Source of the DNA: Candidatus Spongiisociaceae bacterium
Lineage (GTDB): Bacteria; Actinomycetota; Acidimicrobiia; Spongiisociales; Spongiisociaceae
Length of the DNA: 64,000 bases
Direction of reading: 5' to 3'
NCBI GenBank assembly: GCA_965243165.1
Contig: OZ251535.1
Span: 1,217,572-1,281,571, forward strand
The translations under genes were made by a program, and so were the position numbers. Positions within the stretch are counted from its first letter, which is position 1; every line of letters starts with the position of its first letter. The notes beneath the pieces were generated by a model. It ran no database searches. It saw only the letters and a program-made list of their open reading frames with translations, and was not told the origin of the DNA. Below, piece by piece: positions 1 to 44,815 of the stretch.

Positions 1-2183
1 GCTCCGACGGCATTCCCAAGGTGGACGGCACCTTCATCTACTCCTCCGACATGTACATGGACCGGATGCTGTGGGGCGCCACGCTGCGCAGCCCCCACCC
101 CAAGGCCCGGATCACCAAGCTCGACATCGGTCCGGCCTTGGCTATGACCGGCGTCCATGCGGTCCTCACCAACGACGACGTCCCGGGCCGCAAGACCTTC
201 GGGCTGGAGCGACCCGACCAGCCGGTGCTGGGCTCCGAGGAGGTGGAGTACTGGGGCCAGCCGGTGGCGGTGTTGGCGGCCGACGACCCCGAGACCGCCC
301 GCCGGGCGGTGGAAGCCGTCGACGTCGAATACGAGGCGCCGGCGCCCCTCACCGACCCCGAAGAGGCCGACCGGATCGACTCGGTGTTCAAGCGGCAGCG
401 GTGCGTGCGCGGCCCTCAGGACCAGCGGGGGATGGTGTCGGTGGAGGGGTACTACGAGGTGGGGATGCAGGACCAGGCGCCCCTCGGCCCGGAGTCCGGT
501 CTGGCGGTTCCCGACGGGGAAGGCGGGGTCGATCTTCATATCGCCACCCAATGGACGCACATCGACCATGAACAGATCGCGGCCAGCCTGGGGCTGGAGG
601 ACGACGCCGTGCGGCTCCACCATTCGGGGGTGGGAGGGGCTTTCGGCGCCCGGGAAGACGTGAGCCTCCAGATACACCTCTGCCTGCTGGCCCTCTACAC
701 CGGCCGCCCCACCAAGATGGTCTACAGCCGGTTGGAGAGCTTCGCCGGCCACGTCCACCGGCACCCGGCCCGCCTCTGGTACCGCCACGAGGCCGACGTG
801 GACGGCGTCCTCCGGCGGGTGGAGGCCAGGATCCTGCTCGACGGCGGCGCCTACATGTCGACCAGCGCCTCGGTGCTGTCCAACGCCGTCTACCACGCGG
901 CGGGGCCCTACCGCTGCGATTCGGTGTCGGTGGAAGGCGCCGCCGTCCGCACCAACAACCCGCCCTGCGGGGCGATGCGGGGGTTCGGGGCGGTGCAGTC
1001 CTGCTTCGGCTACGAGGCGCAGATGGACAAGCTGGCCGACGCCATCGGCATGGACCGGGTGGAGTTCCGGATCAGGAACGCCCTGCGGACGGGCGACCCC
1101 CTGGCCACCACCGGGCAGGTGATCGAGACCTCGTTGCCCGCCGTGGAGCTGCTGGAGCGGGTGCGGGAGATGCCGCTGCCCGCGGACGAGCCGAGCAACG
1201 ACCCCCGCCTGTTGCCGGGCGGCACCGGCCTGACCACCCCCCGCCGGGCTGTGCGCCGGGGGGTCGGCTATGCGCTGGGGCTGAAGAACCTCTGCTTCTC
1301 CGAAGGCTTCGACGACTACTCCGAAGCCCGGGTGTGCATCACCCCCTTCGGGGTGGAGGTGCACACCGCGGCGGTCGAGGTCGGCCAGGGCCTCGGCATG
1401 ATCCTCACCCAGATCGCCCGGACGGTGCTCGGCATCCGCGACGTGGTGGTGTACTACGACGACACCTCCAAGATCGGTTCCGCCGGGGGGACTTCGGCCT
1501 CCCGCCAGACCCAGATGACCGGCGGAGCGGTGCTCGAGGCGGCCAGAATGGCCCGGGAGATCGCCCTCGCCCGGGGGGGCGGCGACGAGCTGGACGACGA
1601 AGGAGTGTGGAAGGGCGGCGAGCTGGTTGCCCCCATGAAGGAGCTGGTGGGGAGCGAACCCATCGAATACCACATCCGCTTCCACCACCCCCCCACCGAG
1701 CAGCCCGACGAGAACGGCCAGGGCAACCTGCACGTGGACTTCGCGGTGGCCGTCCACCGGGCGGCGGTGGACGTGGACCCGGAGCTGGGCCTCATCCGGG
1801 TGGTGCAGATCGACACCGTCCAAGACGTGGGCTTCATGATCAACCCCCGCTCGGTGGTGGGCCAGATCGAAGGCGGCATCATGCAGGGGGTGGGCCTCGC
1901 CGCCCTGGAGGAGATCGTGATCGAGGAGGGGGTGATCAAGAACCCCACCTTCACCGACTACCTGCTGCCCACCTTCCTGGACGCCCCCCACATAGAGGTG
2001 CAGGTGGTGGAGGAACCCAGCGCCTTCGGCCCCTTCGGCGCCAAGGGGGTGGGCGAACCCCCCACCGTGTCGTCCACCGCCGCGGTGGTGGCGGCCGTCA
2101 GGGCGGCCACCGGCCTGGAGCTGAACCGCACCCCGGTGAGGCCCGAACACATAGTCATGGCCCCCGCCGAGCGAAGCGGATAG
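1..2183 (+). CDS. Xanthine dehydrogenase/aldehyde oxidase family molybdopterin-binding large subunit (CoxL/XdhA-like), 5'-partial
   Basis: The reading frame is open from the window edge (GTG at 21 is in-frame with upstream codons). The 720 aa product has typical XDH/CoxL large-subunit sequence (N-term IPKVDG..., long molybdopterin-binding domain). Stop at 2181-2183. Confidence 0.85.
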   Translation, partial: SDGIPKVDGTFIYSSDMYMDRMLWGATLRSPHPKARITKLDIGPALAMTGVHAVLTNDDVPGRKTFGLERPDQPVLGSEEVEYWGQPVAVLAADDPETARRAVEAVDVEYEAPAPLTDPEEADRIDSVFKRQRCVRGPQDQRGMVSVEGYYEVGMQDQAPLGPESGLAVPDGEGGVDLHIATQWTHIDHEQIAASLGLEDDAVRLHHSGVGGAFGAREDVSLQIHLCLLALYTGRPTKMVYSRLESFAGHVHRHPARLWYRHEADVDGVLRRVEARILLDGGAYMSTSASVLSNAVYHAAGPYRCDSVSVEGAAVRTNNPPCGAMRGFGAVQSCFGYEAQMDKLADAIGMDRVEFRIRNALRTGDPLATTGQVIETSLPAVELLERVREMPLPADEPSNDPRLLPGGTGLTTPRRAVRRGVGYALGLKNLCFSEGFDDYSEARVCITPFGVEVHTAAVEVGQGLGMILTQIARTVLGIRDVVVYYDDTSKIGSAGGTSASRQTQMTGGAVLEAARMAREIALARGGGDELDDEGVWKGGELVAPMKELVGSEPIEYHIRFHHPPTEQPDENGQGNLHVDFAVAVHRAAVDVDPELGLIRVVQIDTVQDVGFMINPRSVVGQIEGGIMQGVGLAALEEIVIEEGVIKNPTFTDYLLPTFLDAPHIEVQVVEEPSAFGPFGAKGVGEPPTVSSTAAVVAAVRAATGLELNRTPVRPEHIVMAPAERSG

Positions 2184-7372: not shown

Positions 7373-8836
7373 ATGAACCGATGGATGCAGGCAGCCTTTG
7401 CGCTGGGGCTGTTGCTGGCGGCCTGCGGAGGCCGGGCGGAACCGGCGGCCGTAACCGCCCCGCCGACCGCCCCCTCATCGACCGCCCCCGCAGCCGCCCC
7501 CTCAGAAGCCGCCCCCGACCCGGCGGTCCCGGCGGTTGCCGAAACGCCGCCCGCCGACTCGGCGGACGCCTCTTCTGCCGCCGCCCCGTCCTCCCTCCCG
7601 GAGGCGGGCGCCGAAGCGGACGGGGAGGAAGCGGCCGACGGGGGGGCCGAGCCGGGCGGCGCCCCCTCCGATGCGCCGGAACCGGACGCCGCGCCGCCGC
7701 CGGACTACCCGCCGGAACAGACCGAGGGGCCGGAACCGACAGGGGCGCCCGCCCCCCTGCGCTCCCTCGTCTACCGGCAGGCGGCCGAGGTGGACTTCCC
7801 CATCGACCTGGCCTCCCTGCCCGGCGCCGGCCTGCTGGTGATCGCTTCGAAGGAGGGGCGGCTGTGGCTGCACGGCGGAGAAGGCCTGCTCCCCGATCCT
7901 TTCCTCGACATCCGCGACCGGGTGCGCAACCGGGGGGAGCAGGGCCTGCTGGGGATGGCCTTCCCGCCGGACTACCCGGCTTCGGGCCGCCTGTTCCTTC
8001 ATTACACGGCCCTCGACGGGGACACCGTGCTGGCCGAATACAGGGCGGAGGGCGGATCGGCCGACCCTGCCTCCGAGGCGGTGCTGTGGCGGGTCGGCCA
8101 GCCGGCCGGCAACCACAACGGGGGAACGATCGCCTTCGGTCCGGACGGTTACCTGTACATGGGCTTGGGCGACGGAGGAGGGGCCGGCGACCGCTTCGGC
8201 CACGGGCAGAACGACCAGACCCCGCTCGGCGCCCTGCTCCGCTTCGATGTCTCCGCCCCCGGCGCCCTGTCGCCCGCGCCCGGCAACCCCTTTCCGGCCC
8301 CCGAGGTGTGGGCGGTCGGCCTCCGCAACCCCTGGCGCTTCACCATCGATTTCCCCTCCGGTCTGATAGTGACCGCCGACGTCGGGCAGGATCTGTTCGA
8401 GGAGGTCTCGATCGCGCCCGTCGCGGCGGCCGGCCTCAACTACGGCTGGCCTATCACGGAGGGCCGCCATTGTTTCCGGCCCGCTTCGGGATGCACCGCC
8501 GACGGCTTGACCCTGCCCGTCTTGGAGGTGGAGCACGGCGACGCAGGCACCTGTTCCATCACCGGCGGGGTCGTATACAGAGGCGCGGAGATCCCGGAAC
8601 TCTACGGGCACTACCTCTTCTCGGACTACTGCGGCGGCTACCTGCGCAGCTTCCCGGTCGAAGCCTTCACCGGGGCCGCCCCGCCGTACCCTCCCTTGGC
8701 CGAGCCGCCCCTCGACTGGACCGGCCAGGTAGGCGTTCCGGGCCAAGTGTCGGCGTTCGGCGTAGACGCCGCCGGAGAGGTGTACGTCCTCGTCTCCGAA
8801 GGCCGGGTGTTCCGCCTGGAGGCCCTGCGGGGCTGA
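7373..8836 (+). CDS. PQQ-dependent sugar dehydrogenase (soluble glucose/sorbosone dehydrogenase-like beta-propeller), lipoprotein
   Basis: Signal peptide plus lipobox MNRWMQAAFALGLLLAACGG. Ala/Pro-rich linker, then GSDH motifs (NHNGG, GDGGGAGD, GLRNPWRF). Confidence 0.75.
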   Translation: MNRWMQAAFALGLLLAACGGRAEPAAVTAPPTAPSSTAPAAAPSEAAPDPAVPAVAETPPADSADASSAAAPSSLPEAGAEADGEEAADGGAEPGGAPSDAPEPDAAPPPDYPPEQTEGPEPTGAPAPLRSLVYRQAAEVDFPIDLASLPGAGLLVIASKEGRLWLHGGEGLLPDPFLDIRDRVRNRGEQGLLGMAFPPDYPASGRLFLHYTALDGDTVLAEYRAEGGSADPASEAVLWRVGQPAGNHNGGTIAFGPDGYLYMGLGDGGGAGDRFGHGQNDQTPLGALLRFDVSAPGALSPAPGNPFPAPEVWAVGLRNPWRFTIDFPSGLIVTADVGQDLFEEVSIAPVAAAGLNYGWPITEGRHCFRPASGCTADGLTLPVLEVEHGDAGTCSITGGVVYRGAEIPELYGHYLFSDYCGGYLRSFPVEAFTGAAPPYPPLAEPPLDWTGQVGVPGQVSAFGVDAAGEVYVLVSEGRVFRLEALRG

Positions 8837-9050
8837 ACGGCCTTCTCTGGACGCCCGCCTCAGCCGCCGGAATCTGTCACAGGCGGGTTGTACCCTCCAT
8901 ACGCATGTTCGGCCTACACGGAATTGACGGCCCTGCGCTCAACCGCAGAGGCGCGCCGCATGGACCCATTGCCGCGTTCCCCGGCCGGGGTGCATCTACC
9001 GTATCGGGCGAAGACGGAGCGGATGTTCTCCGTTCGACGAGGATCGGCGC
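8837..9050. promoter_or_regulatory. Lower-GC intergenic region, putative promoter for the five-gene cluster starting at 9051
   Basis: 214 bp non-coding gap, lower GC than its surroundings, upstream of five co-directional, tightly spaced genes. No explicit -10/-35 assignment was attempted. Confidence 0.3.
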
Positions 9051-11924
9051 ATGGCAAGAACCGCAGAACCGCATCTGAACCTGTTGTTGGCCCAGGCGTT
9101 GGGCAGACGGCACCCGCGGTGGAAGGTGAGCGCCGAGCAGACCCGGAGGGTGCGCGGCTCGGCCGGACTCCGCCCCGACATCCTGGTCGAGCATCACCGC
9201 GGACAGCCGCTCGTCATCGAGACGGAGGTCGACCCGGCCTCCACTGTCGAACAGGACGCTTCCGCGCGGCTCGGGATGACCCTCGAACCCGGCGGAAAGC
9301 AGGTGGAACAGGCGGCGGCGCTCCGCATCCCGGCTTCACTCACCTACGTCAACCAACCGAACCTGGAAGGAGCGGTGGAGCAGGCCGATTATCAGTACGC
9401 CGCGATTTCCTTGAACGCCGACCGAAGCCTCACCCGCTGGCCCCGGGCCGGATGGCTGACAGGCGGGATCGACGACCTGGCCAATCTGTGCGAGAACATC
9501 GCTCTGTCGGAACAGGCCCTGGCCGCCGGGCTGGCCCGGTTGGAAGAAGCGGTGGGCGACATCTCCTACCACTTGCGGCGGCAGGTTCCCCAGGGTGTGC
9601 TCGACAAGATGGCGGCGGAACTGCGGCAGGAGGACGGAGAACAGACATCCCGCATGGCCGCCGCCGTCATCCTGAACGCCGTTACCTTCTATACCGCCCT
9701 GGCAGGCCGCCAGGACATTTCCACACTCGAAGAAATGCGCGCTCAACGTTATGGAAGGCTCCAACTGTCGACGTTGTTGAAAAATTGGGAGAAGATACTG
9801 CGCGTCAACTATTGGCCGATCTTCCATATTGCCAAACAGCTGTTGATTCCTATCCCGGTCGCCGAAGCCAACCTGGCGCTGGAGCAAGCCGCCGCCGCGG
9901 CAGAAGATCTAACCGGGATCGGTGTAACCACGATGCACGACCTGGCGGGGCGGATGTTCCAGCAGCTGATCACCGATCGGAAATATCTGGCCACCTTCTA
10001 CACATTGCCTCCTTCGGCGGCGATGATCGCCGAGCTGGCCGCCGCCAAACTCGAAATCGATTGGGCCGACGAAGGCTCGGTGGCCGAGCTGCGGATCGCC
10101 GACCTGGCCTGCGGTACGGGGACCCTCCTCTCCGCGGCCTATCAGGCAGTACGCTCCCGCCACCGCCGGGCCGGGGGCGACGACGCCAGAATTCACGCCC
10201 GGATGATCGAGAGCGGCCTGATCGCGGCCGACGTGATGCCCCAGGCCGCTCACCTGACCGCCTCGATGCTCTCCTCCGCGCATCCGAGCATACCGTTCGA
10301 CAACACGAGGGTTCACACCCTGCCTTACGGCGTCGATGCCAAGGGGACGCACATAGGGTCGCTGGAGCTGTTGGGAGTCAATGCTTTGGCTTCTCTCTTC
10401 CCGACCGGCGAACAACAGGCTCACGGCGCCGGAGGGCAGGGCCTGATGAAGCTGCAGCGGGAAAGCCTCGATCTCGTGATCATGAACCCCCCGTTCACCC
10501 GCCCCACCAATCACGAGTCGGCCGAGGTTCCCCGCCCCGATTTTGCGGGCTTGGGCAACGACGACGAGGCGCAGCAGCTCATGGGCGCTCGGCTCAGACA
10601 GATTCACAAGCTCATGGCCTCGGAAAAACTCTTGCTGGATCCGGTAGGAAACGGCAACGCCGGCCTGGCGTCTTATTTTGCCGATCTCGCCCATCTGAAG
10701 TTGAAGGAAGGTGGGGTGATGGCGTTGGTGCTTCCCTTCTCCGCAATAGCAGGAAGGTCTTGGAAGAAACTGAGGGCCATGCTGGCCGGCAATTACACCG
10801 ACGCAACGGTGGTGTCCATCGCCGCCGCCGGTTCGACCGACCGGGCCTTCTCGGCGGACACCGGGATGGCGGACGCGGTGATAACAGCCAAGAAGAAAAC
10901 CAAGAGAGGCAGCAACAAGACGCTGTATGTGAACCTGCATCGCCGCCCGGAGAGTATTCCCGAAGCGGTTGAGCTGGCGCGTTCGGCGTCCCGTACCGAT
11001 CCGGAGGAGGAAGGCGGCTATCTGACGGCGGGCGATGATCTGGCCGGTATGTGGATGCAGGGGTCGCTCGTCGGGGATGGAGGCATGGCCGCCGTCTCCC
11101 GGCCGGGCGCGGCGGTCACCATGTCGCGCCTTCCGGGCGGCAGGCTGGTGCTGCCCCGCCGCGCCCGGCCGCTCCGCCTCCCGATGACCACCCTGGCCCA
11201 GGTAGGCCGGGAGGGGTTGGTTCACCGCGATATAGGCGTCAAGCCCGGCGCGATGGGAGACATACGCGGGCCCTTCGATATCCATCCGATGTCGGGTGTT
11301 CCTGACTATCCGGTGCTTTGGGCCCACTCGGCCGGCCGCGAGCGGCGGCTCGTAGTCGAACCGGACAGTGAGGGCAGGGTCAGGCGGGGTCAGGCGGTGA
11401 AAGCGGCCGAGGTGTGGAAGAGGACCGCCGCCCGGTTGCATTTCAACCTCGATTTTCGGTTGAATTCCCAGAGTCTGGCGGCCTGCTTCACTACCGAGCC
11501 GGTCATCGGCGGGCGCGCCTGGCCCAGCTTCGAACCCCGCGAGGAACGGTGGGCCCTGCCCCTTTTGTTGTGGGCCAACACCACCTTGGGCTTGATGTGC
11601 TTCTGGTGGACCGGTACCCGGCAGCACCAAGGCCGGGTCTGTCTCACTATCACCGCCCTCCCCGACCTGCCGGTGTTGGACCCCCGGCGGCTCGACGGCG
11701 GCCGGCTGGAGGCGGCGGAGGGCATATTCGAAGTCTTCCGGGGCCGCGAGCTGCTCCCTGCCAACGAGGCCTACCGCGACGCGGCCCGCCGGAGCCTCGA
11801 CCGCGCCGTCCTCGTCGATCTGCTGGGCCTGCCCGAAGAGATTCTCGGTTCCTTGGACGTCCTGCGCCGGCAGTGGTGCTCCGAACCGTCCGTCCACGGC
11901 GGCAAATCCACCCGCCCGGACTGA
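9051..11924 (+). CDS. Large nuclease/N6-adenine DNA methyltransferase fusion protein (type IIG/IIL-like restriction-modification enzyme candidate)
   Basis: 957 aa. The N-terminus has a PD-(D/E)xK-like signature (RPDILVEHHRGQPLVIETEVD). The central region has gamma-class MTase motif I (IADLACGTGTLL) and motif IV (LVIMNPPFTRP). An about 400 aa C-terminal region is a possible target-recognition domain. Confidence 0.6.
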   Translation: MARTAEPHLNLLLAQALGRRHPRWKVSAEQTRRVRGSAGLRPDILVEHHRGQPLVIETEVDPASTVEQDASARLGMTLEPGGKQVEQAAALRIPASLTYVNQPNLEGAVEQADYQYAAISLNADRSLTRWPRAGWLTGGIDDLANLCENIALSEQALAAGLARLEEAVGDISYHLRRQVPQGVLDKMAAELRQEDGEQTSRMAAAVILNAVTFYTALAGRQDISTLEEMRAQRYGRLQLSTLLKNWEKILRVNYWPIFHIAKQLLIPIPVAEANLALEQAAAAAEDLTGIGVTTMHDLAGRMFQQLITDRKYLATFYTLPPSAAMIAELAAAKLEIDWADEGSVAELRIADLACGTGTLLSAAYQAVRSRHRRAGGDDARIHARMIESGLIAADVMPQAAHLTASMLSSAHPSIPFDNTRVHTLPYGVDAKGTHIGSLELLGVNALASLFPTGEQQAHGAGGQGLMKLQRESLDLVIMNPPFTRPTNHESAEVPRPDFAGLGNDDEAQQLMGARLRQIHKLMASEKLLLDPVGNGNAGLASYFADLAHLKLKEGGVMALVLPFSAIAGRSWKKLRAMLAGNYTDATVVSIAAAGSTDRAFSADTGMADAVITAKKKTKRGSNKTLYVNLHRRPESIPEAVELARSASRTDPEEEGGYLTAGDDLAGMWMQGSLVGDGGMAAVSRPGAAVTMSRLPGGRLVLPRRARPLRLPMTTLAQVGREGLVHRDIGVKPGAMGDIRGPFDIHPMSGVPDYPVLWAHSAGRERRLVVEPDSEGRVRRGQAVKAAEVWKRTAARLHFNLDFRLNSQSLAACFTTEPVIGGRAWPSFEPREERWALPLLLWANTTLGLMCFWWTGTRQHQGRVCLTITALPDLPVLDPRRLDGGRLEAAEGIFEVFRGRELLPANEAYRDAARRSLDRAVLVDLLGLPEEILGSLDVLRRQWCSEPSVHGGKSTRPD

Positions 11925-11966
11925 CCCCGCCTTGGGGGGAGGTTTGTGTCACACCTCCTCTGTACC

Positions 11967-12971
11967 ATGAACCTCATGACTGTTTCGGATGCATCCGCCG
12001 CCGGTTTCTACGACCGGCTCCATGTCGAGAGCTGGGCGCCCGAATACGGCCCTTCGCTGGAGGCCTCCGACGACGATGCAGGCCCGGTTTCTCCGGTCGA
12101 CCCCACTGTGGAAGCCGAGGACTGGAAGCCCTTCGCGGGCGGCGCCGGGGGCGCGCCCGGCCGGGTGGTGTTCGTGGACGGGGTGCGGCGCATCGAGGCC
12201 CGACTGACCTTGGACCATCCGGTCGAAGGTCCGGTGCCGGGCATCCTGGGGGCGTTCGGGGTGGGGGCGGTGATATGGGACCGGGCAGCCCGGCGTTCCA
12301 GCTTCACCGAGTTGACAGTCGAGCGGCTGGCGGTCATGGCCAAGGGGCTGGCAGTGGACATCGACCGCATCGGCGGCCTTCCCGTTTCCCCCGAATCGAC
12401 GCCGGGCGGCGGCCCGTCCGATTTGACGGCCCACCTCCAGCAGCGGATGCGCAGAGCCGAAGGCAGGCTCGCCGACTCCTTCGCCGGCCCCGATTGCCTG
12501 GTGGTTGCCGACGGCCCTTTCCGCGAGCTGCGCGCCCGGCCGGTGGTCGGTTACATCAAGACGCATCAGACCTCCTACCTGGATGAGGAGCACGGCGCCC
12601 TGATAGGCCGGTTGGGGGCGGGCCAACGCACCCCGCTCTTCCTGATCGACGCCGAACGCCACCCCCGCTACTCCTGGTATCTGCGGCTGGCCGATCTGCC
12701 GGGCGGCCATTCGTGGACCGGGGTGGTGCGCTGCGAGGCGGCCGCCTCCCTCGGGGTCGACCGGGCGGCGGAGATGGCGGGCTGGACGGCCGCCCTCCTG
12801 CCCCGGCTGGCCTCCGAAGGCCACATCGACCGGCGGGCGCCCCAGAACCTGGTGCCGATCGCCGCCCTCGAGCGGGAGCTGCGCAAACACATGGGCGACC
12901 AGAACCTGGCCGAACGCGCCCTGCGCACCGCAGTGCGCCGCCTCCGTCTAGCCGGCGCCGGCGCAGGATAG
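11967..12971 (+). CDS. nurA: NurA-like 5'-3' nuclease (HerA partner)
   Basis: About 335 aa with a VVFVDGVRRIEA segment resembling the NurA catalytic (I/V)DGS region, sitting immediately upstream (10-bp gap) of a HerA-like ATPase. Start uncertain (ATG 11946, 11967 or 11976). Confidence 0.5.
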   Translation: MNLMTVSDASAAGFYDRLHVESWAPEYGPSLEASDDDAGPVSPVDPTVEAEDWKPFAGGAGGAPGRVVFVDGVRRIEARLTLDHPVEGPVPGILGAFGVGAVIWDRAARRSSFTELTVERLAVMAKGLAVDIDRIGGLPVSPESTPGGGPSDLTAHLQQRMRRAEGRLADSFAGPDCLVVADGPFRELRARPVVGYIKTHQTSYLDEEHGALIGRLGAGQRTPLFLIDAERHPRYSWYLRLADLPGGHSWTGVVRCEAAASLGVDRAAEMAGWTAALLPRLASEGHIDRRAPQNLVPIAALERELRKHMGDQNLAERALRTAVRRLRLAGAGAG

Positions 12972-12981
12972 GAGGCCGGCG

Positions 12982-14727
12982 ATGCCAGACCGACGAGACC
13001 GGAGCGGCCCCCGCCCGGTGGGGAGGGTGATCTCCTCGGAGCACACCAACACCCAGGAGTTCCGGGTGGTGCTGAACGACGACAGCTACCTCCAGCTCGA
13101 TGACCTGGTGGTGCTGGAGACCGAGGTGCCGGGGGCGGGGACGGTCCGCACCTACGGTGTGGTTACCGAATCTCAGGCCGTCTACGAGGGGGCGCAGTAC
13201 GAATCCGACACCTTCCGCATCGCCGAGGAGGGCATCCTCCCCGCCGCCAAGATCCGGTCGGCGCAGGCGGCGGTAACCAGGGTCGACCCGGAGCTGTGGG
13301 TGGCGCCCGACCCGGGCGGCGAGGTTCACCGCGCCGCCGGCGAACAGCGCGACAAGGCCCTCTACAAGGACGAAATGGGCCGCCCCCTGCCGGTCGGGAT
13401 CGGGCGCGACATGGAACCCGTGTACGCGGACCTCGACTTCTTCGACGGGCGCAAGGGCGGCCACATGTCGATCTCGGGCATCTCGGGGGTGGCCACCAAG
13501 ACCTCCTACGCCCTGTTCTTCCTGCGCATGCTCACCGCCCGCCCTGCTCTGGTGGGGGAGGGGGCCGCCAACCTGCGGATCCTGGTGTTCAACGTCAAGG
13601 GCGAGGATCTGCTGTGGCTCGACAAGCCCAACCGCTTCCTCGACCAGGATGCAGTGGACGCCTGGAACATCTTGGAGGTGGAACCGGCCCCCTTCCCGCA
13701 GGTGAGCTTCTGGGCGCCGCCCCGCCCCCGGTCCGGGGACGCGGTGCTCCCCGACACGGGCGGGCGGATGGAGGGGATCGAGGCCTTCGCGTGGACGCCC
13801 CGGGAGTTCATCGAGGAGGGCCTGTTGGCCTTCCTGTTCACCGACGCCTCCGACTACAGCAACCAGATCTCCTTCGTGGAGGAACGGGTGCGCGCCCAGT
13901 TGCGGCGGCGGGCGGCGGACGTCGCCGGTGAACCGGGGGCGGTGGTGCTGCGCCCGCCGCCCGACGGGGGCTGGCGCGGCCAACAGGTCCGCCCCGACCA
14001 GGGGGAACGGGTGATCCGCACCCTGGCCGACCTCGTAGAGGCCTTGGACGAATACCTCGACCCCCCCGACGGTTCGGACCCCGACCCGGCCTGGTCGGGC
14101 CGCACCCAGACGGGGACCATCTCGGCTTTCATGCGCCGCCTCCATTCCGCCTCCCACCGGCTCGGCCACCTGGTGCGGGCGGGGCCGAGCCGCCGCATCG
14201 ACCGCCATGCCGCCCAGGTAACCGTGGTCTCCATCCAGACCCTCCACGATCTGGGGCAGCGCTTCGTGGTGGGCGCCCTGCTCAAGGAGGCCTTCGAGGA
14301 GAAGGAGAAGACCGGGCACCGTCTGCCGCTGTCGGTGATCGTGCTCGACGAGCTCAACAAGTACGCCCCGCGGGAGGGCCGCAGTCCGCTCAAGGAGATG
14401 CTGATCGACATCGCTCAACGGGGCCGCTCTCTAGGGGTGCTGCTGGTGGGCGCCCAGCAGACCGCCTCGCGGGTGGCGCCCGAAGTGCTGGAGAACGCCG
14501 CCCTGCGGGTGGCCGGACGCCTCGACGCCGCCGAAGCCGCCCGGTCCGAATACGGATGGATGCTCCCCTCCACCCGCGCCCGGGCCCGCCTCCTGAAACC
14601 GGGCACCATGGTGCTTTCCCAGCCCGCCATCCCGGTGCCCCTGGTGCTCACCTTTCCGTTCCCGGCCTGGGCCACCCGCCGGGAGGAAGCCGAAAACCCG
14701 GGCGAAAACCCCTTCGAGGGCCTTTAG
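12982..14727 (+). CDS. herA: HerA-like FtsK/HerA-superfamily ATPase (DUF87), deviant P-loop
   Basis: 581 aa. N-terminal HAS-barrel-like region, then HMSISGISGVATKTS (aligns to the HerA H-x-A-I-x-G-x-T-G-S-G-K-S block but has T/A where canonical G residues are expected) and a Walker B LSVIVLDELNKYAP. Confidence 0.65.
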   Translation: MPDRRDRSGPRPVGRVISSEHTNTQEFRVVLNDDSYLQLDDLVVLETEVPGAGTVRTYGVVTESQAVYEGAQYESDTFRIAEEGILPAAKIRSAQAAVTRVDPELWVAPDPGGEVHRAAGEQRDKALYKDEMGRPLPVGIGRDMEPVYADLDFFDGRKGGHMSISGISGVATKTSYALFFLRMLTARPALVGEGAANLRILVFNVKGEDLLWLDKPNRFLDQDAVDAWNILEVEPAPFPQVSFWAPPRPRSGDAVLPDTGGRMEGIEAFAWTPREFIEEGLLAFLFTDASDYSNQISFVEERVRAQLRRRAADVAGEPGAVVLRPPPDGGWRGQQVRPDQGERVIRTLADLVEALDEYLDPPDGSDPDPAWSGRTQTGTISAFMRRLHSASHRLGHLVRAGPSRRIDRHAAQVTVVSIQTLHDLGQRFVVGALLKEAFEEKEKTGHRLPLSVIVLDELNKYAPREGRSPLKEMLIDIAQRGRSLGVLLVGAQQTASRVAPEVLENAALRVAGRLDAAEAARSEYGWMLPSTRARARLLKPGTMVLSQPAIPVPLVLTFPFPAWATRREEAENPGENPFEGL

Positions 14728-14742
14728 GCGGAGCGGGGGCAG

Positions 14743-15912
14743 ATGCGCATCCTCCATACCTCCGACTGGCACATCGGCAAGAAGATCGGCCGCTTCGACC
14801 GCCTCGACGAATACCGGGAGGTCATCGACGAGGTAGCGGACGCAGCCGAGCGGGAACAGGTCGACCTGGTGGTCCACAGCGGCGACGTGTTCGACCGGCC
14901 CATCCCTCCGATGGCCTCCCTCGCCCTCGGCCTGGAGGGCCTGGTCCGGCTGACCGGCGGGGGGAAGAGGCCGGCGGCGGTCATCGCCGGCAACCACGAC
15001 TCGCCCGCCCTGTTCGAGATATTGGCGGAGTTCATGGCCGCCCGCAATGTGCATCTGGTGGGGGAGATCAAACCCCCGGACGAGGGCGGGGTGCTCGAGC
15101 TCGACACTCCTGGCGGGCGGGCGGTGGTTTCATGTTTCCCGTTCTTGAGGGAGGGCCGGGCCTTCAACGTGTGGACGCCGCCCGGCGGTCAGTACAAGAA
15201 GTACGCCGACCGGCTGGGGAGCATCGCCAAGGCCTACGCCGAGTCCGCCCACCGGAAGGCGGGCGGCGGTGCGGTTACGGTGCTGGCCGCCCATTTCCTG
15301 GTGGGGGGCGCCAAGGTGCACGGCCACGGCGCTCCCAGGGGGGAGCGGGCCCTCCACATGGGCGAGGTCTACGCCGCCGATCCCCGGGCCATCCCGCCCG
15401 GCCCCCAGTATGTGGCGCTCGGCCATATCCACGCCCCGCAGCGGGCGCCGGGGGCGGCGGCCCCGGCCGAGTACGCCGGCTCGCTCCTGGAGCTCGACTT
15501 CGGCGAGGCGGGGGAGCAGAAGCGGGTGGTGGTGGTGGACGTCGAGCCCGGCCTCCCCGCCCAGGTGCGCTCGGTCCCGCTGGCGGGCGGCCGCCGGCTG
15601 CTGCGCCCGGCCGGAACCTGGGAGGAGATCGAAGATATGGAGGGCCTCGACGAGGCGTTCCTCGACCTCACGGTGCACACCGAAGGCCCTGACCCGGGGC
15701 TGGCCGACCGGGCCCGGGAGCGGTTCCCCTATCTGGTCAAGGTGCGGGCCGAGTATCCGAAGGCCGAGTCGGAGCGGCGCTCGCGGGAGGGGCGGGCCGT
15801 CTCCGACCTGTACGGGGACTACTACCGGCGCATCGAGGGGGTCGAACCTCCGGAGGAGCTCATCGAGGCGCTGCGGAAGCTGATGGAGGAGGAGGCCGGT
15901 GCGCCCGCTTGA
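14743..15912 (+). CDS. sbcD: Exonuclease SbcD / Mre11 family nuclease
   Basis: MRILHTSDWHIG... calcineurin-like phosphoesterase motifs (GDVFD, GNHD, GHIH). 389 aa. Confidence 0.85.
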   Translation: MRILHTSDWHIGKKIGRFDRLDEYREVIDEVADAAEREQVDLVVHSGDVFDRPIPPMASLALGLEGLVRLTGGGKRPAAVIAGNHDSPALFEILAEFMAARNVHLVGEIKPPDEGGVLELDTPGGRAVVSCFPFLREGRAFNVWTPPGGQYKKYADRLGSIAKAYAESAHRKAGGGAVTVLAAHFLVGGAKVHGHGAPRGERALHMGEVYAADPRAIPPGPQYVALGHIHAPQRAPGAAAPAEYAGSLLELDFGEAGEQKRVVVVDVEPGLPAQVRSVPLAGGRRLLRPAGTWEEIEDMEGLDEAFLDLTVHTEGPDPGLADRARERFPYLVKVRAEYPKAESERRSREGRAVSDLYGDYYRRIEGVEPPEELIEALRKLMEEEAGAPA

Positions 15913-18436
15913 ACTTCGTCTTCGGAACTTCCGGTCTTTCCGCGGGGAGGGCCACACCTTCGACTTCCGCGGACGGCGTCTGATCGGGGTGGTGGGTCCG
16001 ATCGGCTCGGGCAAGAGCACCATCCTCGATGCGATCGCCTTCGCCCTCTACGGCTGCACCCCCCGCATCAACAGAGAAACCAGGTCGCTCATCCACCAGC
16101 AGGCCGACCACGCGGCGGCGGCGCTGCGGTTCGAAGTCGATGGGGAAGTATGGGAGGCGGTCCGCAACCTGCGGCGGAGCGGCCAGAGCCAGCACGCCCT
16201 GTACAAGCTGTCGGCCGACGAACCGGACGCCGGCGAGGTCGAGAAGGTGTTGCAGCAGCGGGAGGTGAATGCCCGGGTCCAGGAGCTGCTCGGCCTGGAC
16301 TTTCCGGGGTTCAGCCGGTCGGTGCTGCTGGCTCAGGGCCGATTTGCCGAGTTCCTGAACGCCCGCCCGGCGGAGAGGGACAAGGTGCTCAAGGGGGTGT
16401 TCGGCTACGAACGAATCGGCTTGATCCGCGATCTCGCCCGCCGAGCCGCCGCCGCCGGAAAGCACGAGATCGAAAAGCTGGACATCCGCTTGGAGAACGC
16501 CCGGGCGGCGGAAGAACGCCTGTCGAAGCGCCGGGAAGAGCTGGCCGCCGCCGCCGGCCGTCTGGCGGAGCTGGAGAAAGTGCGGCCCGCGTTCGACGAA
16601 CTGGCCGAGCGCATCCGCGCCGCTTCCGAGAAGAGGGGCAAAGCCGAAGACCAGCTGGCCGAACTCCGCCGCCGGGCAAAGGATCTGCCCAACAAGACCA
16701 AGGCGGAGCGCAGCCTGAAAAAGGCCCGCAAGGTGCGCGCCCTGCGGTCCGAGGCCGAGCGGAAGCTGGCGGCCGCCGAGCAGGGGGCGGCCGAGGCGAA
16801 GGAGGCGGCCGAGGCCGAGCGGGTGGAGGAGCGCGAGCAGAGTTGGAACGAAGCCAACCGCTTGGTGGTGCGGCTGGAGGACCGTCAGAAGGCGGCCGAA
16901 GAAGCGTCCGCAGCTGCGGCCAAAGCAGCCGCCGAGGTCGCGGAGGGTGAGAAGTCGGTCGAGGCCGCCCGGTCGAAGCTGGCCTCCGCCGAGGCGGGCT
17001 TCGCCCGCGCCGAAGCGGCCGCGCAGGAAGCCGACGCCGATCTGAGCCGGGCCGAGAAGCTGCTGCAGGACGCCCGGCGCGCCGACATGGCCGGCTCGCT
17101 GCGGGAACAGCTGGCCGAAGGGGACGACTGCCCGGTGTGCGAACAACCCGTGCTTCGGGTTCCCCCCGTTGCCGCCGCCGGCGCCGCAGCCGCCGAGAAG
17201 GCCGTGAAGCAAGCGCGCTCCGCGCAGAAGGGATCGGCGGACCGCCTCCGCACCGCCGCCGGAGCCCTCGGGGCGGCCAAAGCCGCTCTCGAAGGGAAGG
17301 AGCAGCGCCTCGACGGATTCCGCCGCCGGGTCGAGGCGGCGCGGGAAGCGGAAGCCGAACGAAGCGCCCTTCTCGACCGCAGCCGCCGCGAGATGGACCG
17401 CCTGCTGGGCGAGGGCGACCCCGCCGCCCTGCTGAAGGCGGAACGGGCCGCCCTGAATGCTTTTCACAGCAGGGCGGCCGAGGCCCGGCGGGTACTGGAG
17501 GCCGCACAGAAAAGGTTCAACAAAGCCGGCGCGGAGGAGAAGCAGGCGCAGCGGGCGGTGGCGGATCTGCGCATCCGGATCGCCGCCCTCGCCGCCCGGC
17601 TGCCGGCCGGCCCGGAGGTTTCAGAGGACGACCCCGAGGCGGTCAGGGCGGCGTTGACGGCCCTCCACGCCGACTGGAAACAGGTCACATCTGATCTGCA
17701 GCGGGCGGCGGCGGAGGCGAGAACCGAAGCCGAGGCGGAAGCCGCCCGGCTGGCCGAGCTGCGGGCGGAGCACGGTGTCGAGGGTTCGATAGAGGAGGCC
17801 TCGGCCGCGGCCGGCGCCAAACGCGAACAGCTCGAGGCCTACATCGAACAGGACGAACAGCTGCTGGCCGGCGCGAAGGAGCTGGCGGCGGAGAAAAAGG
17901 CCCATCGCGCCGAGGTCCGTTTGCACGAGCGGCTGGTCAAGGATCTGACCGACGCCCGTTTCGTCCGCTTCCTGTTGGACGAAGAGCGGGCGGCGCTGGC
18001 CGGTCTGGGTTCGGAGCACTTCGAGCGGCTGTCGTCGGGCCGGTACCGCTTCACCGAGGACGGTGAGTTCTCGGTGGTGGACCTCAACGCCGCCGAGGCG
18101 GTGCGGCGGGCGGACAGCCTGTCGGGCGGCGAGACCTTCCTGGCGTCGCTGGGGCTGGCGCTCGGTCTGGCCGAGATGGTGGGGCGCCGGGGCGGCCGCT
18201 TGGACGCCTTCTTCTTGGACGAAGGCTTCGGCGCCCTCGACCCCGAGCACCTGGACCTGGCGATGGAGGGCATCGAGTCCCTGGTGTCCGCCCGCGAGCA
18301 ACGCCTGGTGGTGGTGGTTTCCCACATCCCCGAAGTCCAGAACCGCATCGAAGACCTGATCGTGCTCGGCAACCACCCCATCACCGGCGACTCGAAGGTG
18401 GTGTCCGGCGGAGCCGGCCGGCCGCAGCCTTCTTGA
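15899..18436 (+). CDS. sbcC: Exonuclease SbcC / Rad50-like SMC ATPase
   Basis: N-terminal Walker A GPIGSGKSTILDAIAFALYG, a long coiled-coil with a CPVC zinc-hook, and a C-terminal signature LSGGETF plus D-loop. Overlaps the sbcD stop by 14 nt. Confidence 0.85.
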   Translation: MRPLELRLRNFRSFRGEGHTFDFRGRRLIGVVGPIGSGKSTILDAIAFALYGCTPRINRETRSLIHQQADHAAAALRFEVDGEVWEAVRNLRRSGQSQHALYKLSADEPDAGEVEKVLQQREVNARVQELLGLDFPGFSRSVLLAQGRFAEFLNARPAERDKVLKGVFGYERIGLIRDLARRAAAAGKHEIEKLDIRLENARAAEERLSKRREELAAAAGRLAELEKVRPAFDELAERIRAASEKRGKAEDQLAELRRRAKDLPNKTKAERSLKKARKVRALRSEAERKLAAAEQGAAEAKEAAEAERVEEREQSWNEANRLVVRLEDRQKAAEEASAAAAKAAAEVAEGEKSVEAARSKLASAEAGFARAEAAAQEADADLSRAEKLLQDARRADMAGSLREQLAEGDDCPVCEQPVLRVPPVAAAGAAAAEKAVKQARSAQKGSADRLRTAAGALGAAKAALEGKEQRLDGFRRRVEAAREAEAERSALLDRSRREMDRLLGEGDPAALLKAERAALNAFHSRAAEARRVLEAAQKRFNKAGAEEKQAQRAVADLRIRIAALAARLPAGPEVSEDDPEAVRAALTALHADWKQVTSDLQRAAAEARTEAEAEAARLAELRAEHGVEGSIEEASAAAGAKREQLEAYIEQDEQLLAGAKELAAEKKAHRAEVRLHERLVKDLTDARFVRFLLDEERAALAGLGSEHFERLSSGRYRFTEDGEFSVVDLNAAEAVRRADSLSGGETFLASLGLALGLAEMVGRRGGRLDAFFLDEGFGALDPEHLDLAMEGIESLVSAREQRLVVVVSHIPEVQNRIEDLIVLGNHPITGDSKVVSGGAGRPQPS

Positions 18437-18455
18437 CCTGCGCCGGATCACCGGC

Positions 18456-19385
18456 TCACCGGTGAAGCGGTTCACCCGATTCGATGTCGTATCGTTCCAG
18501 ATAGTCCTCGATGCTGCGGACGTACGCCCGGATCTGGGCCCCGTTGGGATCGTCGGCGGGGAACCAGCCGGCGGCGTATGAAACCGCTCGGCAGGCCGCC
18601 CGCGCCAGGCCGGCCAACATCTCCGAAGAGGCCTCGAGGCCTTGCCCGGTGCTGCGGCAACCGGCTTCGGTGCGCCATGGCGTGATCGCATCGGCGCCGG
18701 GCGGCTCCAACAGAGGGAGGACGGCCCGGCGGTGAGTTTCCGAGAGCTGGGCGCAGAGCCTGCCTATGTTGTGGCCCCGCGCTGCCCGGTCAGGGTCGGC
18801 CTCTAGATGTATCAGCGTCTTGAGCGACAGTTCCACCACCATATGAGCATTCCCGCAACCGCTTTGCAGCCGTTCGTTCATACGCATCCATATATCCACC
18901 ATTTCGCTGCTGCTTCGTTCGATTCGACCGGGGCCGATATGCTCTAGCAACTCACCCAAAGCAACTCTTGCTTCCTCCAATCGGGCAAGGGATTCCGCGT
19001 AGTCGCTGTCGGGCATCACCATCTCCTTGTTCCAATCCACATCGACGCCAACAGGCCGGTTCACGAGAACCCTCCCATGCCGGGCGATCCGCCCTTCGAG
19101 CGATGTGCGCACCTTGGTGGTGCGCATCCTCCACTCCGCTCGGTCGGTCACGCTCACATCCACCGGGAACTCCACGGCCCGCTCCGCCAGTTCCTCCAGC
19201 TCGCACCCCTTTTCCCGGCGTCTTTCGTAGTCCAGATCGTCGAAGACGGCCATCAGGTCGATGTCGCTGTGCTCGTCGGCTTCCCCGCGGGCCACCGAAC
19301 CGAACAGCACCACCCGGCCCGCCCCCGCCTCCGCCAAGGCCGCCGCCGCCCGTTCCGCGGCGGCCCGCACCGGCGCCGCCGCCAT
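18456..19385 (-). CDS. Nucleotidyltransferase (MNT/pol-beta-like) - HEPN domain fusion protein
   Basis: N-terminal GSVARGEADEHSDIDL (GS...DxD NTase motif). C-terminal helical region with an R-x4-H motif (RAARGH), which is HEPN-like. Its start ATG overlaps the stop of the upstream gene (ATGA). Confidence 0.6.
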   Translation of the reverse strand: MAAAPVRAAAERAAAALAEAGAGRVVLFGSVARGEADEHSDIDLMAVFDDLDYERRREKGCELEELAERAVEFPVDVSVTDRAEWRMRTTKVRTSLEGRIARHGRVLVNRPVGVDVDWNKEMVMPDSDYAESLARLEEARVALGELLEHIGPGRIERSSSEMVDIWMRMNERLQSGCGNAHMVVELSLKTLIHLEADPDRAARGHNIGRLCAQLSETHRRAVLPLLEPPGADAITPWRTEAGCRSTGQGLEASSEMLAGLARAACRAVSYAAGWFPADDPNGAQIRAYVRSIEDYLERYDIESGEPLHR

Positions 19386-19684
19386 CAGAACTCCGTGAGC
19401 ATCCGGGCGTCTACATTGGTGATGTAGTCCATGGGGTCGAAGGACATCTCACCGCGGCGGGGGTCGGCGTAGTAGCGCTGCTCGGCCTCCTCGAAGGTAC
19501 CGTCCCCGTCGTAGTGGACGATCCACACGTACTGATAGGCCGCCTCGACCAGCCAGGGGCCCTCCCGCCGGAAGCCGTGGTCGAGGCGGATCGGCAGGAG
19601 CTCCTCGTCCACCTTGGCGGCGAACTCCTCCAGCGTTCCGGGCTTCAGGTCGTAGATGCGGAGTTGAGCGGGCATGGCTCTCAT
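19385..19684 (-). CDS. NIPSNAP-like small protein (99 aa)
   Basis: MRAMPAQLRIYDLKPGTLEEF... resembles the NIPSNAP/Dabb N-terminus. ATGA overlaps with both the upstream and downstream genes. Confidence 0.45.
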   Translation of the reverse strand: MRAMPAQLRIYDLKPGTLEEFAAKVDEELLPIRLDHGFRREGPWLVEAAYQYVWIVHYDGDGTFEEAEQRYYADPRRGEMSFDPMDYITNVDARMLTEF

Positions 19685-21294
19685 GGTACACGGCCTCCTT
19701 CGGGTTTCTTCACCGGGGCCTTCGAACGCCTTCCGGCCCGCTCGAGGTACAGGTCCAGCGTTTTCTCCCTCGCCCACACCAGATCGATCAGGTCTTTTTT
19801 CGGGATCTGGAGCTCCCCGGCGGAGATGATCTCGCGGCGGAACTCGTCCAGCGGGATGCGGCGGTCCTTCTTCCGCTGGTTGTGATACGGGCACAGGGGC
19901 GCCCGGTTGGGCAGCCGGTTGGACCCCTCCGCCGACCTCGGGTCGATGTGGTCCAGATGGAAGTTGATGGGCTTGCGGATGACCTCCCCGTCCGGCCTCC
20001 GGTTGGCGAAGCCGCAGCACCAGGCTTTATAGCCGGACAGCTCCAGCAGCATGACCAGCATCTCCCGAGCCGGTATATCGGACGCCGGAACCTTGTACCT
20101 GCGTTCGCGGGGCTTCATGGCGGGGGCGGGTTTCGGGTCTTGGGTAACCCGTTCGGGGATGCCGTCGGGGCGGATCATCCGGATATCGGCGTCGGCGATC
20201 CAGGCGGTTTGCCTGCCCTCCCTCATCTCCAGCTCGGGGTTCTGGCCGTCCACCGCGTAATGGAACTTGTTGAACTGCCGCCTGACCACGGTCATGGCGC
20301 GCGGGTTTATGTCGCAGGCGATCCACTGCCTGCCCAGCCGTTCCGCGGCCACCGGAACATAGGCGCACCCGGCGAACGGATCCAACACCACGTCGCCGGG
20401 GTTGGAAGCAGACCGGATGATGCGTTCGGCGAGAGCTACGGGTTTCTGGGTGGGATAGCCGGTCCGTTCCGGATCAGTGCTTCCGATATAGGGAATGTTC
20501 CACACATCGCGCATGTTCACTAGGTTGTACACTCCGTGTCTGTCCTGGAAAAATTCGGCCTGTCCTCCTCCGTAGTTGACCACACCTGGTCTACGCGATT
20601 TGGATTTCGTATATGACTTCTCTTTCGGTTTGTTATAGGTCCATTTGCTGGTTTTTGAATAAAAAAAGATAGTGTCGTGTTTCTTGGAGAATCGAGTGCG
20701 CGATGCCCCGCCTGTTCTATACGACCAAACTATTTCGTTGCGGAAGTTCTTCTGTCCCAACACCGCGTCCAGCACAAGACGCAGATAGGAGTTGGCAGTG
20801 GGGTCACAGTGCAAAAAAACCGAACCGGTTTGTTTCAGCACCCGGTGCATTTCAATGATGCGGATCGCCATGTAGGCCAGGTAGGCAGCGTGCCCATCCG
20901 AATGAGAGTAACGGGCGGCGTCTATGACCTTTGCCACCGCCTCGTACCGGCCCTCGATCTTGACCAGCCACTCCTCGTGGATGTCTTTTTCCCAGGCCCA
21001 GACGTCGTGGAACCGGGCGATAGCTTCTCCGTTGTCCGGCCAATCGATGTTCGCTTCGGCGGCGGCGGCGCGGTTGTGGATTCCCCAGCCGGCCAGGGTC
21101 TGTTTCTCCAAGGCCAGCTCTTCGGCGCTCAGAGGAGGCTTCAGCGCGCCGGTGAAGGCGTAGTTCTTGGCGAACGGCGGGTCGGTCACGATCAGATCCA
21201 CCGTTTCGTTGTCCATGGCCCGGAGCATCTCCAGGTTGTCGGCGATCACCATGCGGCGGTTGAGGGGGTGCGGGGAGTCGAACTGGCTGGTCAT
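19681..21294 (-). CDS. Beta-class N6A/N4C DNA methyltransferase fused to a C-terminal HNH endonuclease domain
   Basis: Motif IV DLIVTDPPF comes before motif I VLDPFAGCAY (N6_N4_Mtase order). The C-terminus has CCGF...HLDHIDP...N...CPYHNQ, an HNH signature. 537 aa. Confidence 0.75.
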   Translation of the reverse strand: MTSQFDSPHPLNRRMVIADNLEMLRAMDNETVDLIVTDPPFAKNYAFTGALKPPLSAEELALEKQTLAGWGIHNRAAAAEANIDWPDNGEAIARFHDVWAWEKDIHEEWLVKIEGRYEAVAKVIDAARYSHSDGHAAYLAYMAIRIIEMHRVLKQTGSVFLHCDPTANSYLRLVLDAVLGQKNFRNEIVWSYRTGGASRTRFSKKHDTIFFYSKTSKWTYNKPKEKSYTKSKSRRPGVVNYGGGQAEFFQDRHGVYNLVNMRDVWNIPYIGSTDPERTGYPTQKPVALAERIIRSASNPGDVVLDPFAGCAYVPVAAERLGRQWIACDINPRAMTVVRRQFNKFHYAVDGQNPELEMREGRQTAWIADADIRMIRPDGIPERVTQDPKPAPAMKPRERRYKVPASDIPAREMLVMLLELSGYKAWCCGFANRRPDGEVIRKPINFHLDHIDPRSAEGSNRLPNRAPLCPYHNQRKKDRRIPLDEFRREIISAGELQIPKKDLIDLVWAREKTLDLYLERAGRRSKAPVKKPEGGRVP

Positions 21295-44514: not shown

Positions 44515-44815
44515 GTGTACTTCCCATGGACGTTGTTGACAGTTGGGCGGCGGGGGCATGAGCCGCACCCCGCCTGCTCTCACTGCTCCGCTGCCTCGGG
44601 GCGGCCTTCCCCCGGCGCGCCTCGAATGTGAGGTTACAGCGAACGGATATGTCACAGCCGGGGTGTACTCTCATAGTATGATACGAACATGGGTTCGGAC
44701 CAGCAGCACCCACAGGCAATACTCGGAAGATGAATCGCCTGCTGAAAATGGTTTGCCGGGGTGCCTTGTAAGCAGGTCGCGGCAGGCGCTCGGAGGATGA
44801 AGGAGGCGGCGAGCT

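Follow-up and report, generated by a model that had tools for sequence, protein, structure and literature searches.

Sets of genes for the resection of DNA ends are the closest described relatives of the system analyzed here. The resection mechanism of HerA-NurA is documented for Deinococcus radiodurans (PMC9960219), for which the link of SbcCD to this pair was stated as unresolved (PMC4663267), and Oceanithermus profundus was noted earlier to possess a nurA-hepA-sbcD-sbcC cluster (PMC5448004). We analyzed a 64,000-nt stretch of contig OZ251535.1 from a Candidatus Spongiisociaceae bacterium (in the following, the window; G+C content about 69%), in which nurA, herA, sbcD and sbcC follow one another directly downstream of a gene, hereafter gene 1, for a putative nuclease-methyltransferase fusion. 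A preliminary description of this 9.4-kb stretch had placed five plus-strand genes here, and all five open reading frames (ORFs) are indeed present at the positions it gave; they are separated by 21, 10, 15 and -14 nt, in this order. It had weighed two explanations, namely an integrated defense module in which restriction breaks are handed over to a dedicated resection complex, and a repair operon invaded by a restriction-modification (RM) gene. Our comparison with related loci bears out the second: The stretch is very probably a repair operon with a solitary RM-type gene inserted in its promoter, and the adjacency of the two parts, both of which belong to known kinds, is accidental and recent.

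The insertion upstream of nurA

The genes nurA-herA-sbcD-sbcC form a conserved operon in Acidimicrobiia and at least one Dehalococcoidia, and the five-gene cluster is not one conserved unit. When one genome per species was scanned for HerA, nine loci (L008-L016) came to light: eight from Acidimicrobiia, Spongiisociaceae or unclassified metagenome-assembled genomes and one from a Dehalococcoidia (L014). The four genes have the same order in all nine, and tblastn detects no homologue of gene 1 in any of them. With L074, L075 and L076, the number of related loci that possess the operon and lack gene 1 amounts to 12, most of them from Acidimicrobiia, at HerA identities from 64% to 96%; the neighborhood comparison that the preliminary description had proposed as a check thus finds gene 1 missing from the same locus in relatives. 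In two of these loci, L008 and L009, synteny with the window extends to both flanks, with a GSDH-family dehydrogenase gene upstream and a methylase-HNH gene and gpsA downstream. In L074, no gene 1 was found within 8 kb on either side of nurA-herA-sbcDC, and the same contig probably holds a gene 1 homologue (P0006 cluster) elsewhere.

The converse search, starting from gene 1, leads to the same picture. The five-gene layout recurs only in L005, where gene 1 is 93% identical. At six loci with homologues of 52-71% identity the gene stands alone among unrelated metabolic genes, and NurA, HerA, SbcD and SbcC are encoded in the flanks of none of 61 loci with homologues of 35-71% identity (55 from metagenomes), of which 30 include 3 kb or more of downstream sequence and 35 as much upstream. 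No family of flanking ORFs recurs among these 61 loci, except within near-identical lineages.

The boundaries of the insertion became apparent from the near relative L076, whose nucleotide sequence runs collinear to that of the window with 86-92% identity and which encodes HerA, SbcD and SbcC with 96%, 90% and 84% identity. Here, the GSDH gene is followed by a 62-nt spacer and then by nurA, which makes L076 the empty site. In a blastn alignment of the two, the matching blocks stop at window position 8881 (L076 3551) and restart at 11948 (L076 3546), with an overlap of 6 nt in L076. The intervening 3,065 bp hold no gene other than gene 1, which is preceded by 169 nt and followed by 22 nt of insert sequence. 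On either side of the insert stands the heptamer TGTCACA as a 7-bp direct repeat (8875-8881 and 11947-11953); L076 possesses one copy here, which reads CGTCACA. Counting both strands, TGTCACA occurs only four times in the window. The composition also sets the insert apart: Its G+C content is 65.6% and the G+C content at third codon positions (GC3) of gene 1 is 0.80, compared with 70.5-73.4% and 0.85-0.91 in the neighboring genes.

Terminal inverted repeats and a mobility gene were sought in the insert and not seen, and TGTCACA repeats do not flank the other motif-bearing methylase genes of the window. We also considered that the two promoter-like copies on either side of gene 1 might stem from a long recent duplication, which we rejected: They are about 58% alike by hand count outside the 7-bp repeat and a TGTACC block. 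The insert contains an element, CTCTACCGTAT(C/G)CGGC, at about 8990-9005, which is kept 55-70 nt upstream of the orthologues in L005, L006 (there as CTCTAGCGTAT), L007 and L019, also at unrelated loci, and is probably gene 1's own promoter or operator region. In L007 (9670-9790) and in L019 (upstream of 4311), which represent one lineage, the orthologue is preceded, at a distance of about 200-300 nt, by a long tandem CTCACTTT(CT) array.

The upstream neighbor of gene 1 in the window is the GSDH-family dehydrogenase gene (Pfam, 1.5e-30), which ends at 8836 and leaves a gap of 214 nt. A 565-amino-acid ORF at 7381-9078 (+) that overlaps the start of gene 1 was discarded, as it is an alternative frame of the GSDH gene without a family match, that is, an artefact of high G+C content; it gives high tblastn identities in relatives, and alternative-frame ORFs at 70% G+C can look conserved. 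On the other side, a gene for a nucleotidyltransferase-domain protein (NTP_transf_2/Polbeta; 18456-19385, minus strand) is convergent with sbcC, and a related NTP_transf_2 + HEPN gene is divergent from nurA in L074 (6090-6845).

Table 1. Positions of the genes, domains and promoter-like motifs discussed in the text.
Feature	Position	Strand	Basis
Insert carrying only gene 1, 3,065 bp	8882-11946		collinear alignment with L076, composition
Gene 1, type IIG-like enzyme, 957 amino acids	9051-11924	+	ORF list, motifs, fold
Predicted PD-(D/E)xK nuclease domain, D43 E57 E59	gene 1 residues 1-150		
Helical connector	gene 1 residues ~150-335		
Predicted gamma-class N6-adenine methyltransferase, DLACGTG + NPPF	gene 1 residues ~336-650		
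Conserved C-terminal region, presumably DNA recognition	gene 1 residues ~651-957		
nurA	11976-12971 (likely ATG start); longest ORF from GTG 11946, 341 amino acids	+	Pfam, PDB matches, start spacing
herA, bacterial clade, 581 amino acids; Walker A GISGVATKT, Walker B VLDE	12982-14727	+	match to 7f6d_B
sbcD, Mre11-type phosphoesterase nuclease, 389 amino acids	14743-15912	+	TIGR00619, Pfam Metallophos + SbcD_C
sbcC, Rad50-type ATPase, 845 amino acids	15899-18436	+	AAA_23, SbcC_Walker_B, TIGR00618
Hybrid promoter-like motif, TGTCACAG-N8-TACCCT	8875-8896	+	motif search; also in L005
Ancestral nurA promoter-like motif, TGTCACAC-N8-TACCAT	11947-11968	+	motif search, cross-locus comparison
RecA-NDp-like motif TGTCAYAS-N8-TAnnnT, other sites	21355-21334; 44650-44671; 53506-53527	-; +; +	motif search

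The encoded proteins

The assignments of the preliminary description, a type IIG-like fusion enzyme followed by NurA, HerA, SbcD and SbcC, are upheld by profiles, matches to solved structures, motifs and fold. The profile searches it had suggested were successful in part: NurA, SbcD and SbcC score above family cut-offs, HerA has no match to the Pfam DUF87/HerA models, and gene 1 has none above cut-off. The identities of the latter two were therefore taken from a sequence search of solved structures, family motifs and fold comparison.

HerA matches its D. radiodurans counterpart (PDB 7f6d_B) at 1.5e-118 over query residues 12-574 and chain residues 14-605. This full-length match spans the HAS barrel, the RecA-like ATPase and the helical insert and thereby identifies the protein as a HerA; the PADLOC HerA model matches it at 1.4e-5, its homologues are named 'DNA helicase HerA-like ATPase' in their sources, and its identity stays at 74% or more across over 100 clusters. 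Its P-loop, GVATKTS, had been called deviant, with the suggestion that the protein may behave unlike canonical HerA. The sequence is present as described, but the Walker A segment ISGISGVATKTSYALF is identical to that of the biochemically characterized D. radiodurans HerA: GVATKT aligns with K175/T176 of the latter and VLDE with D487/E488. In D. radiodurans HerA, K175 and T176 contact the β-phosphate and Mg2+, mutation of Walker A/B residues abolishes ATPase activity and resection, and mutation of K175 impairs both (PMC9960219). Judged from this alignment, GVATKTS, a working Walker A in D. radiodurans, is the normal Walker A of the bacterial HerA clade and lends no support to the idea of an unusual HerA.

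The remaining repair proteins are recognized more directly. NurA matches D. radiodurans NurA (7f6d_H) at 1.3e-24 and TM1739 (1zup) at 6e-11, and reaches 22.7 bits with the Pfam model NurA PF09376 (cut-off 21). SbcD matches TIGR00619 at 1.7e-45 (155.8 bits, cut-off 77.65) and carries the phosphoesterase motifs DWHIG, GDVFD, GNHD and GHIH. In SbcC, AAA_23 (2.2e-22) and SbcC_Walker_B both lie above cut-off, and the protein displays GSGKST (Walker A), a mid-protein CPVC zinc hook, the LSGGE signature and FLDEGFG (Walker B); with TIGR00618 it scores 222.8 bits (7.7e-66), under the cut-off of 478.5, because its coiled coil is short. The divergence of SbcC is uneven: It is 63% identical to the protein of L005 (9528-12065) and 84% to that of L076 (7493-10030), while HerA is 97% and 96% identical, respectively. 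Either rapid evolution of the coiled coil or recombination inside the operon could account for this fast divergence.

From the characterized homologues, a course of events can be proposed for the repair operon with its promoter (11947-18436): SbcCD would recognize and open DNA ends, whereupon a HerA hexamer would drive duplex DNA into a NurA dimer, and the 5' strand would be resected before RecA is loaded.

Gene 1 is less easily placed. Motifs and fold support a fusion of a nuclease and an N6-adenine methyltransferase in one polypeptide, and the best fold likeness is to the type IIG enzyme BpuSI. Profile matches are weak (PADLOC MTase_II 4e-11, mad2 7e-8; PF05175 under cut-off), nothing in Pfam or NCBIfam exceeds its cut-off, including the type IIG families (MmeI, Eco57I and others), and a sequence search of the PDB gives only marginal BrxX matches (E = 0.66). 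The family is large and uniform in length (about 960-1000 amino acids): Gene 1 has 4,234 matches among clusters at 90% identity and, among representatives at 50% identity, 3,556 at E<=1e-3 and 1,066 at E<=1e-30. Where the sources name these homologues at all, they do so only as 'hypothetical protein' or 'N-6 DNA methylase', and we know of no member that has ever been characterized.

When 94 diverse representatives of full length were aligned with the window protein (95 sequences), the putative catalytic residues of both activities proved to be conserved. At the nuclease site, which begins with P42-D43, the aspartate is found in 94 of 95 sequences and E57 likewise in 94, and position 59 is glutamate in 76 and lysine in 16; an ExE variant of the nuclease motif also occurs in BamHI. 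In the methyltransferase, D351, G355 and G357 of motif I (DLACGTG) as well as NPP are invariant (95/95), followed by F in 80 and Y in 15. Conservation of the C-terminal third is about that of the methyltransferase domain (mean identities of 0.40 and 0.43, respectively), greater variability is confined to residues ~631-750 (0.22-0.32), and a clearly hypervariable recognition domain is not evident.

Given its architecture, the preservation of its catalytic motifs and a distribution that is solitary, patchy and low in G+C, gene 1 most likely encodes a self-contained type IIG/IIL-like RM enzyme. Such a single-chain enzyme would methylate its own target and cut unmodified DNA; its gene, in this reading a recent arrival (8882-11946), would have landed in the TGTCACA element of the nurA promoter, thereby leaving the 7-bp direct repeat. 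It is not obviously a phage- or plasmid-borne gene: Phage records contain no homologue, IMG/VR yields one distant match (28% identity), and plasmids yield seven weak or partial ones. One of the latter, on the Dinoroseobacter shibae plasmid pDSHI04 (L018, 6001-6663), is a stand-alone C-terminal remnant (residues 720-932, 41% identical) between insertion sequence (IS) elements. None of our comparisons calls for an interaction between gene 1 and the repair operon.

The nurA promoter and alternative explanations

According to the preliminary description, a single promoter-like gap upstream of gene 1 would serve all five genes. However, a conserved promoter-like motif also sits between gene 1 and nurA, so that the five genes do not depend on this one gap. 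The first 7 nt of this nurA motif are the right copy of the TGTCACA repeat, and the first 7 nt of the hybrid motif, located 154 nt upstream of gene 1, are the left copy: Because the insertion hit the TGTCACA element, nurA retained a complete motif and gene 1 gained a hybrid one. The form [T/G]GTC....-N8-TACCAT-N4-9-ATG is found upstream of nurA in the window, L005, L008-L011, L013, L015, L016 and L076. Specifically, the window and L005 share TGTCACAC-N8-TACCAT-N7-ATG, and the upstream element reads TGTCGCAC in L008, TGTCATAC in L009, TGTCACAC in L013, TGTCTTAG in L015, TGTCCCAC in L016, CGTCACAC in L076 and GGTCA... in L010 and L011. The strict pattern is also present just upstream of nurA in L012, while the Dehalococcoidia locus L014 has a LexA-like box, GAAC-N4-GTTC, instead. 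Judging from this motif, the repair operon keeps its own promoter directly upstream of nurA.

The motif has the same TGTCR core, 8-nt spacing and TAnnnT -10 element as the RecA-NDp promoters, whose consensus has been given as tTGTCRgtg-8 nt-TAnnnT (PMC5656591) and which are the target of PafBC in mycobacteria (PMC8223512). It differs in the last three positions of the upstream element, where CAC, CAG or TAC takes the place of gtg; the consensus is mycobacterial and the host here belongs to the Acidimicrobiia. Because of this resemblance, we predict that the repair operon is probably damage-inducible, through a promoter of the actinobacterial RecA-independent, PafBC-type shape; in the window itself, no regulator was identified. 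Moreover, an ATG lies 6-9 nt past the -10 hexamer in most loci (4 nt in L016) and 7-8 nt past it in the window (ATG 11976), for which reason the nurA mRNA is probably leaderless and starts at this codon. Scans of 8700-18800 for sigma-70 and terminator consensus sequences remained at background level, and an Rfam search of the window gave no match.

Five sites in the window fit the pattern TGTCR-N11-TAnnnT, compared with 0.31 expected; three precede DNA methylase genes and one precedes nurA, and all four exact TGTCACA heptamers fall in these sites. Of the three further sites, the one on the minus strand precedes a gene for a 537-amino-acid N6_N4 methylase-HNH endonuclease fusion (19681-21294, minus strand) in the lowest-GC stretch nearby (60.5%); the same fusion occurs at this position in L008 and L009, the latter with two paralogues of which at least one (15546-17225) has the motif. 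Downstream of the site at 44650, at a distance of 12 nt, lies CGAACATGGGTTCG (44684-44697), the window's only perfect LexA-box-like palindrome (CGAAC-N4-GTTCG), and such a pairing has been reported for some mycobacterial genes. Thereafter, within the plus-strand stretch 44650-46044, comes a 244-amino-acid ORF with a partial N6_N4 methylase domain (44816-45550), which is overlapped by a 235-amino-acid ORF in another frame, so that the gene may be frameshifted; a gene for a 913-amino-acid DUF1156 protein (46138-48879, minus strand) adjoins them. The site at 53506 reads TGTCATAC-N8-TACCTT and is followed by about 1 kb (53506-54480) without a convincing ORF or Rfam match, where an RNA may have escaped annotation or a gene may have decayed. 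Next to it lies a 182-amino-acid ORF (54485-55033, minus strand) that consists mostly of tandem AIEKQNA(T)IEKQ repeats and has a hydrophobic C-terminal segment.

Several observations weigh against a purely accidental adjacency or against gene 1 as a restriction enzyme. The spacer between gene 1 and nurA contains no significant hairpin and folds no better than shuffled sequence (z = 0.48), and read-through from gene 1 into nurA may therefore occur. The hybrid motif could co-regulate gene 1 with the repair operon, which would amount to a weak coupling in this lineage. Furthermore, the C-terminus of gene 1 is conserved, whereas target-recognition domains are hypervariable in many type IIG families, and this may leave room for a different role, and the full-length structure model is of moderate confidence (predicted local distance difference test score, pLDDT, 67).

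These points touch on an alternative in which gene 1 is no classical restriction enzyme but a factor that is induced by damage, modifies or processes DNA and belongs, with the nurA operon and two other methylases, to a RecA-NDp-like regulon, its position reflecting shared regulation. The excess of motif sites speaks for it, as does their location before gene 1, nurA, the methylase-HNH gene (21294-19681) and the N6_N4 methylase ORF, the LexA-box-like palindrome after one of them and the lack of hypervariability in the C-terminal region. Nonetheless, we regard this alternative as unlikely: The motif copy of gene 1 is a junction product whose TGTCACA half comes from the ancestral nurA promoter, and at other loci the orthologues of gene 1 lack the motif upstream and have just a different element, CTCTACCGTAT, in common. 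In addition, the sporadic, solitary, low-GC pattern of the family fits a mobile accessory gene, and both the nuclease and the methyltransferase catalytic motifs are retained, as would be expected of an RM enzyme.

A broader conjecture, which we hold to be about equally improbable, assigns the PafBC/RecA-NDp-like element (TGTCACA-N7-TGTAC) of sponge-associated Acidimicrobiia several roles at once: It would drive the nurA operon in a RecA-independent damage regulon, recur before restriction-type methylases and be the integration target for single-gene cassettes without a mobility gene of their own. If true, restriction-type genes would be damage-inducible and would spread by recombination mediated by a promoter element.

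The integrated defense module fares worse. Here, the type IIG-like enzyme would cut and the co-transcribed NurA-HerA and SbcCD would degrade the fragments in a RecBCD-like manner, the five genes constituting one system. The genes are co-directional with spacers of at most 21 nt, no significant terminator separates gene 1 from nurA, the layout is also found in L005, and PADLOC reports a weak and partial likeness to three components of the multi-gene methylation-associated defense system (MADS), for gene 1 (mad2, 7e-8), SbcC (mad3, 1.8e-23) and HerA (mad8, 4e-6). However, the linkage is confined to the window and its closest relative and is absent from the 12 operon loci and the 61 gene 1 loci; nurA has retained its conserved promoter motif; and the repair genes are highly conserved, vertically inherited and of housekeeping type, as illustrated by HerA. 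The MADS matches reflect a generic likeness of ATPases and methyltransferases; the NCBIfam model MADS2 reaches 15.8 bits against a cut-off of 720. The module is thus a very unlikely explanation.

Least credible of all, with hardly any probability left to it, is an ancestral five-gene state, with gene 1 later deleted in the relatives by way of the two 7-bp repeats: Recombination between short repeats would leave one copy, as in L076, but many independent precise deletions would be needed and an insertion is more parsimonious, because the gene-1-free loci span all sampled diversity (HerA 64%-96%) and include relatives in which GSDH and nurA genes adjoin in the same way (L008, L009 and L076), while gene 1 is lower in G+C than its neighbors and its closest homologues lie at unrelated loci.

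Relation to known systems

The insertion of a solitary RM-type gene into the nurA promoter, as we favor it, removes a tempting candidate for a new defense system from consideration. In exchange, it provides a clean and datable case of a core repair operon whose promoter was probably entered by a restriction-type gene; occupied and empty site are both known. In Acidimicrobiia, NurA-HerA and SbcCD are linked as a rule, in the manner of archaea, which supports the functional link that was left unresolved for D. radiodurans. A RecA-NDp-like, probably leaderless promoter on this operon would extend the promoter class to a deep actinobacterial branch. Finally, the gene 1 family, with more than 1,000 clusters at 50% identity and no specific name in the sources, appears to be type IIG-like with a mostly ExE nuclease motif.

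This motif distinguishes gene 1 from the described type IIG/IIL enzymes, as the third catalytic position of its family is mostly E, not K; moreover, the sequence identity to BpuSI (PDB 3S1S) and DrdV (PDB 7LO5) is just 9-14%. MADS and BREX systems combine, like the genes analyzed here, a methyltransferase with SMC-like or other ATPases, which is mirrored by the weak PADLOC matches to mad2, mad3, mad8 and PglX. Yet the NCBIfam model BREX PglX scores 13.9 bits, like MADS2 far under its cut-off (500 bits), and no MADS model appears for genes 2-5 in NCBIfam (for SbcC, among the best 25 families). In a comparison that for MADS uses profile scores only, a further difference from MADS and BREX cassettes is that gene 1 and the repair genes are not co-inherited.

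The repair operon itself has clear counterparts. As in D. radiodurans (PDB 7F6D/7WRW; PMC9960219), nurA precedes herA in an operon, with the difference that sbcD and sbcC lie directly downstream in the same operon here. The archaeal herA-mre11-rad50-nurA operon brings the same four functions together, and the operon of the window is its bacterial counterpart, in the same gene order as the O. profundus cluster. What sets it apart from both O. profundus and archaea are its hosts, which are Acidimicrobiia and one Dehalococcoidia, its RecA-NDp-like promoter and, in the lineage of the window, the foreign gene that very likely came to lie within this promoter.

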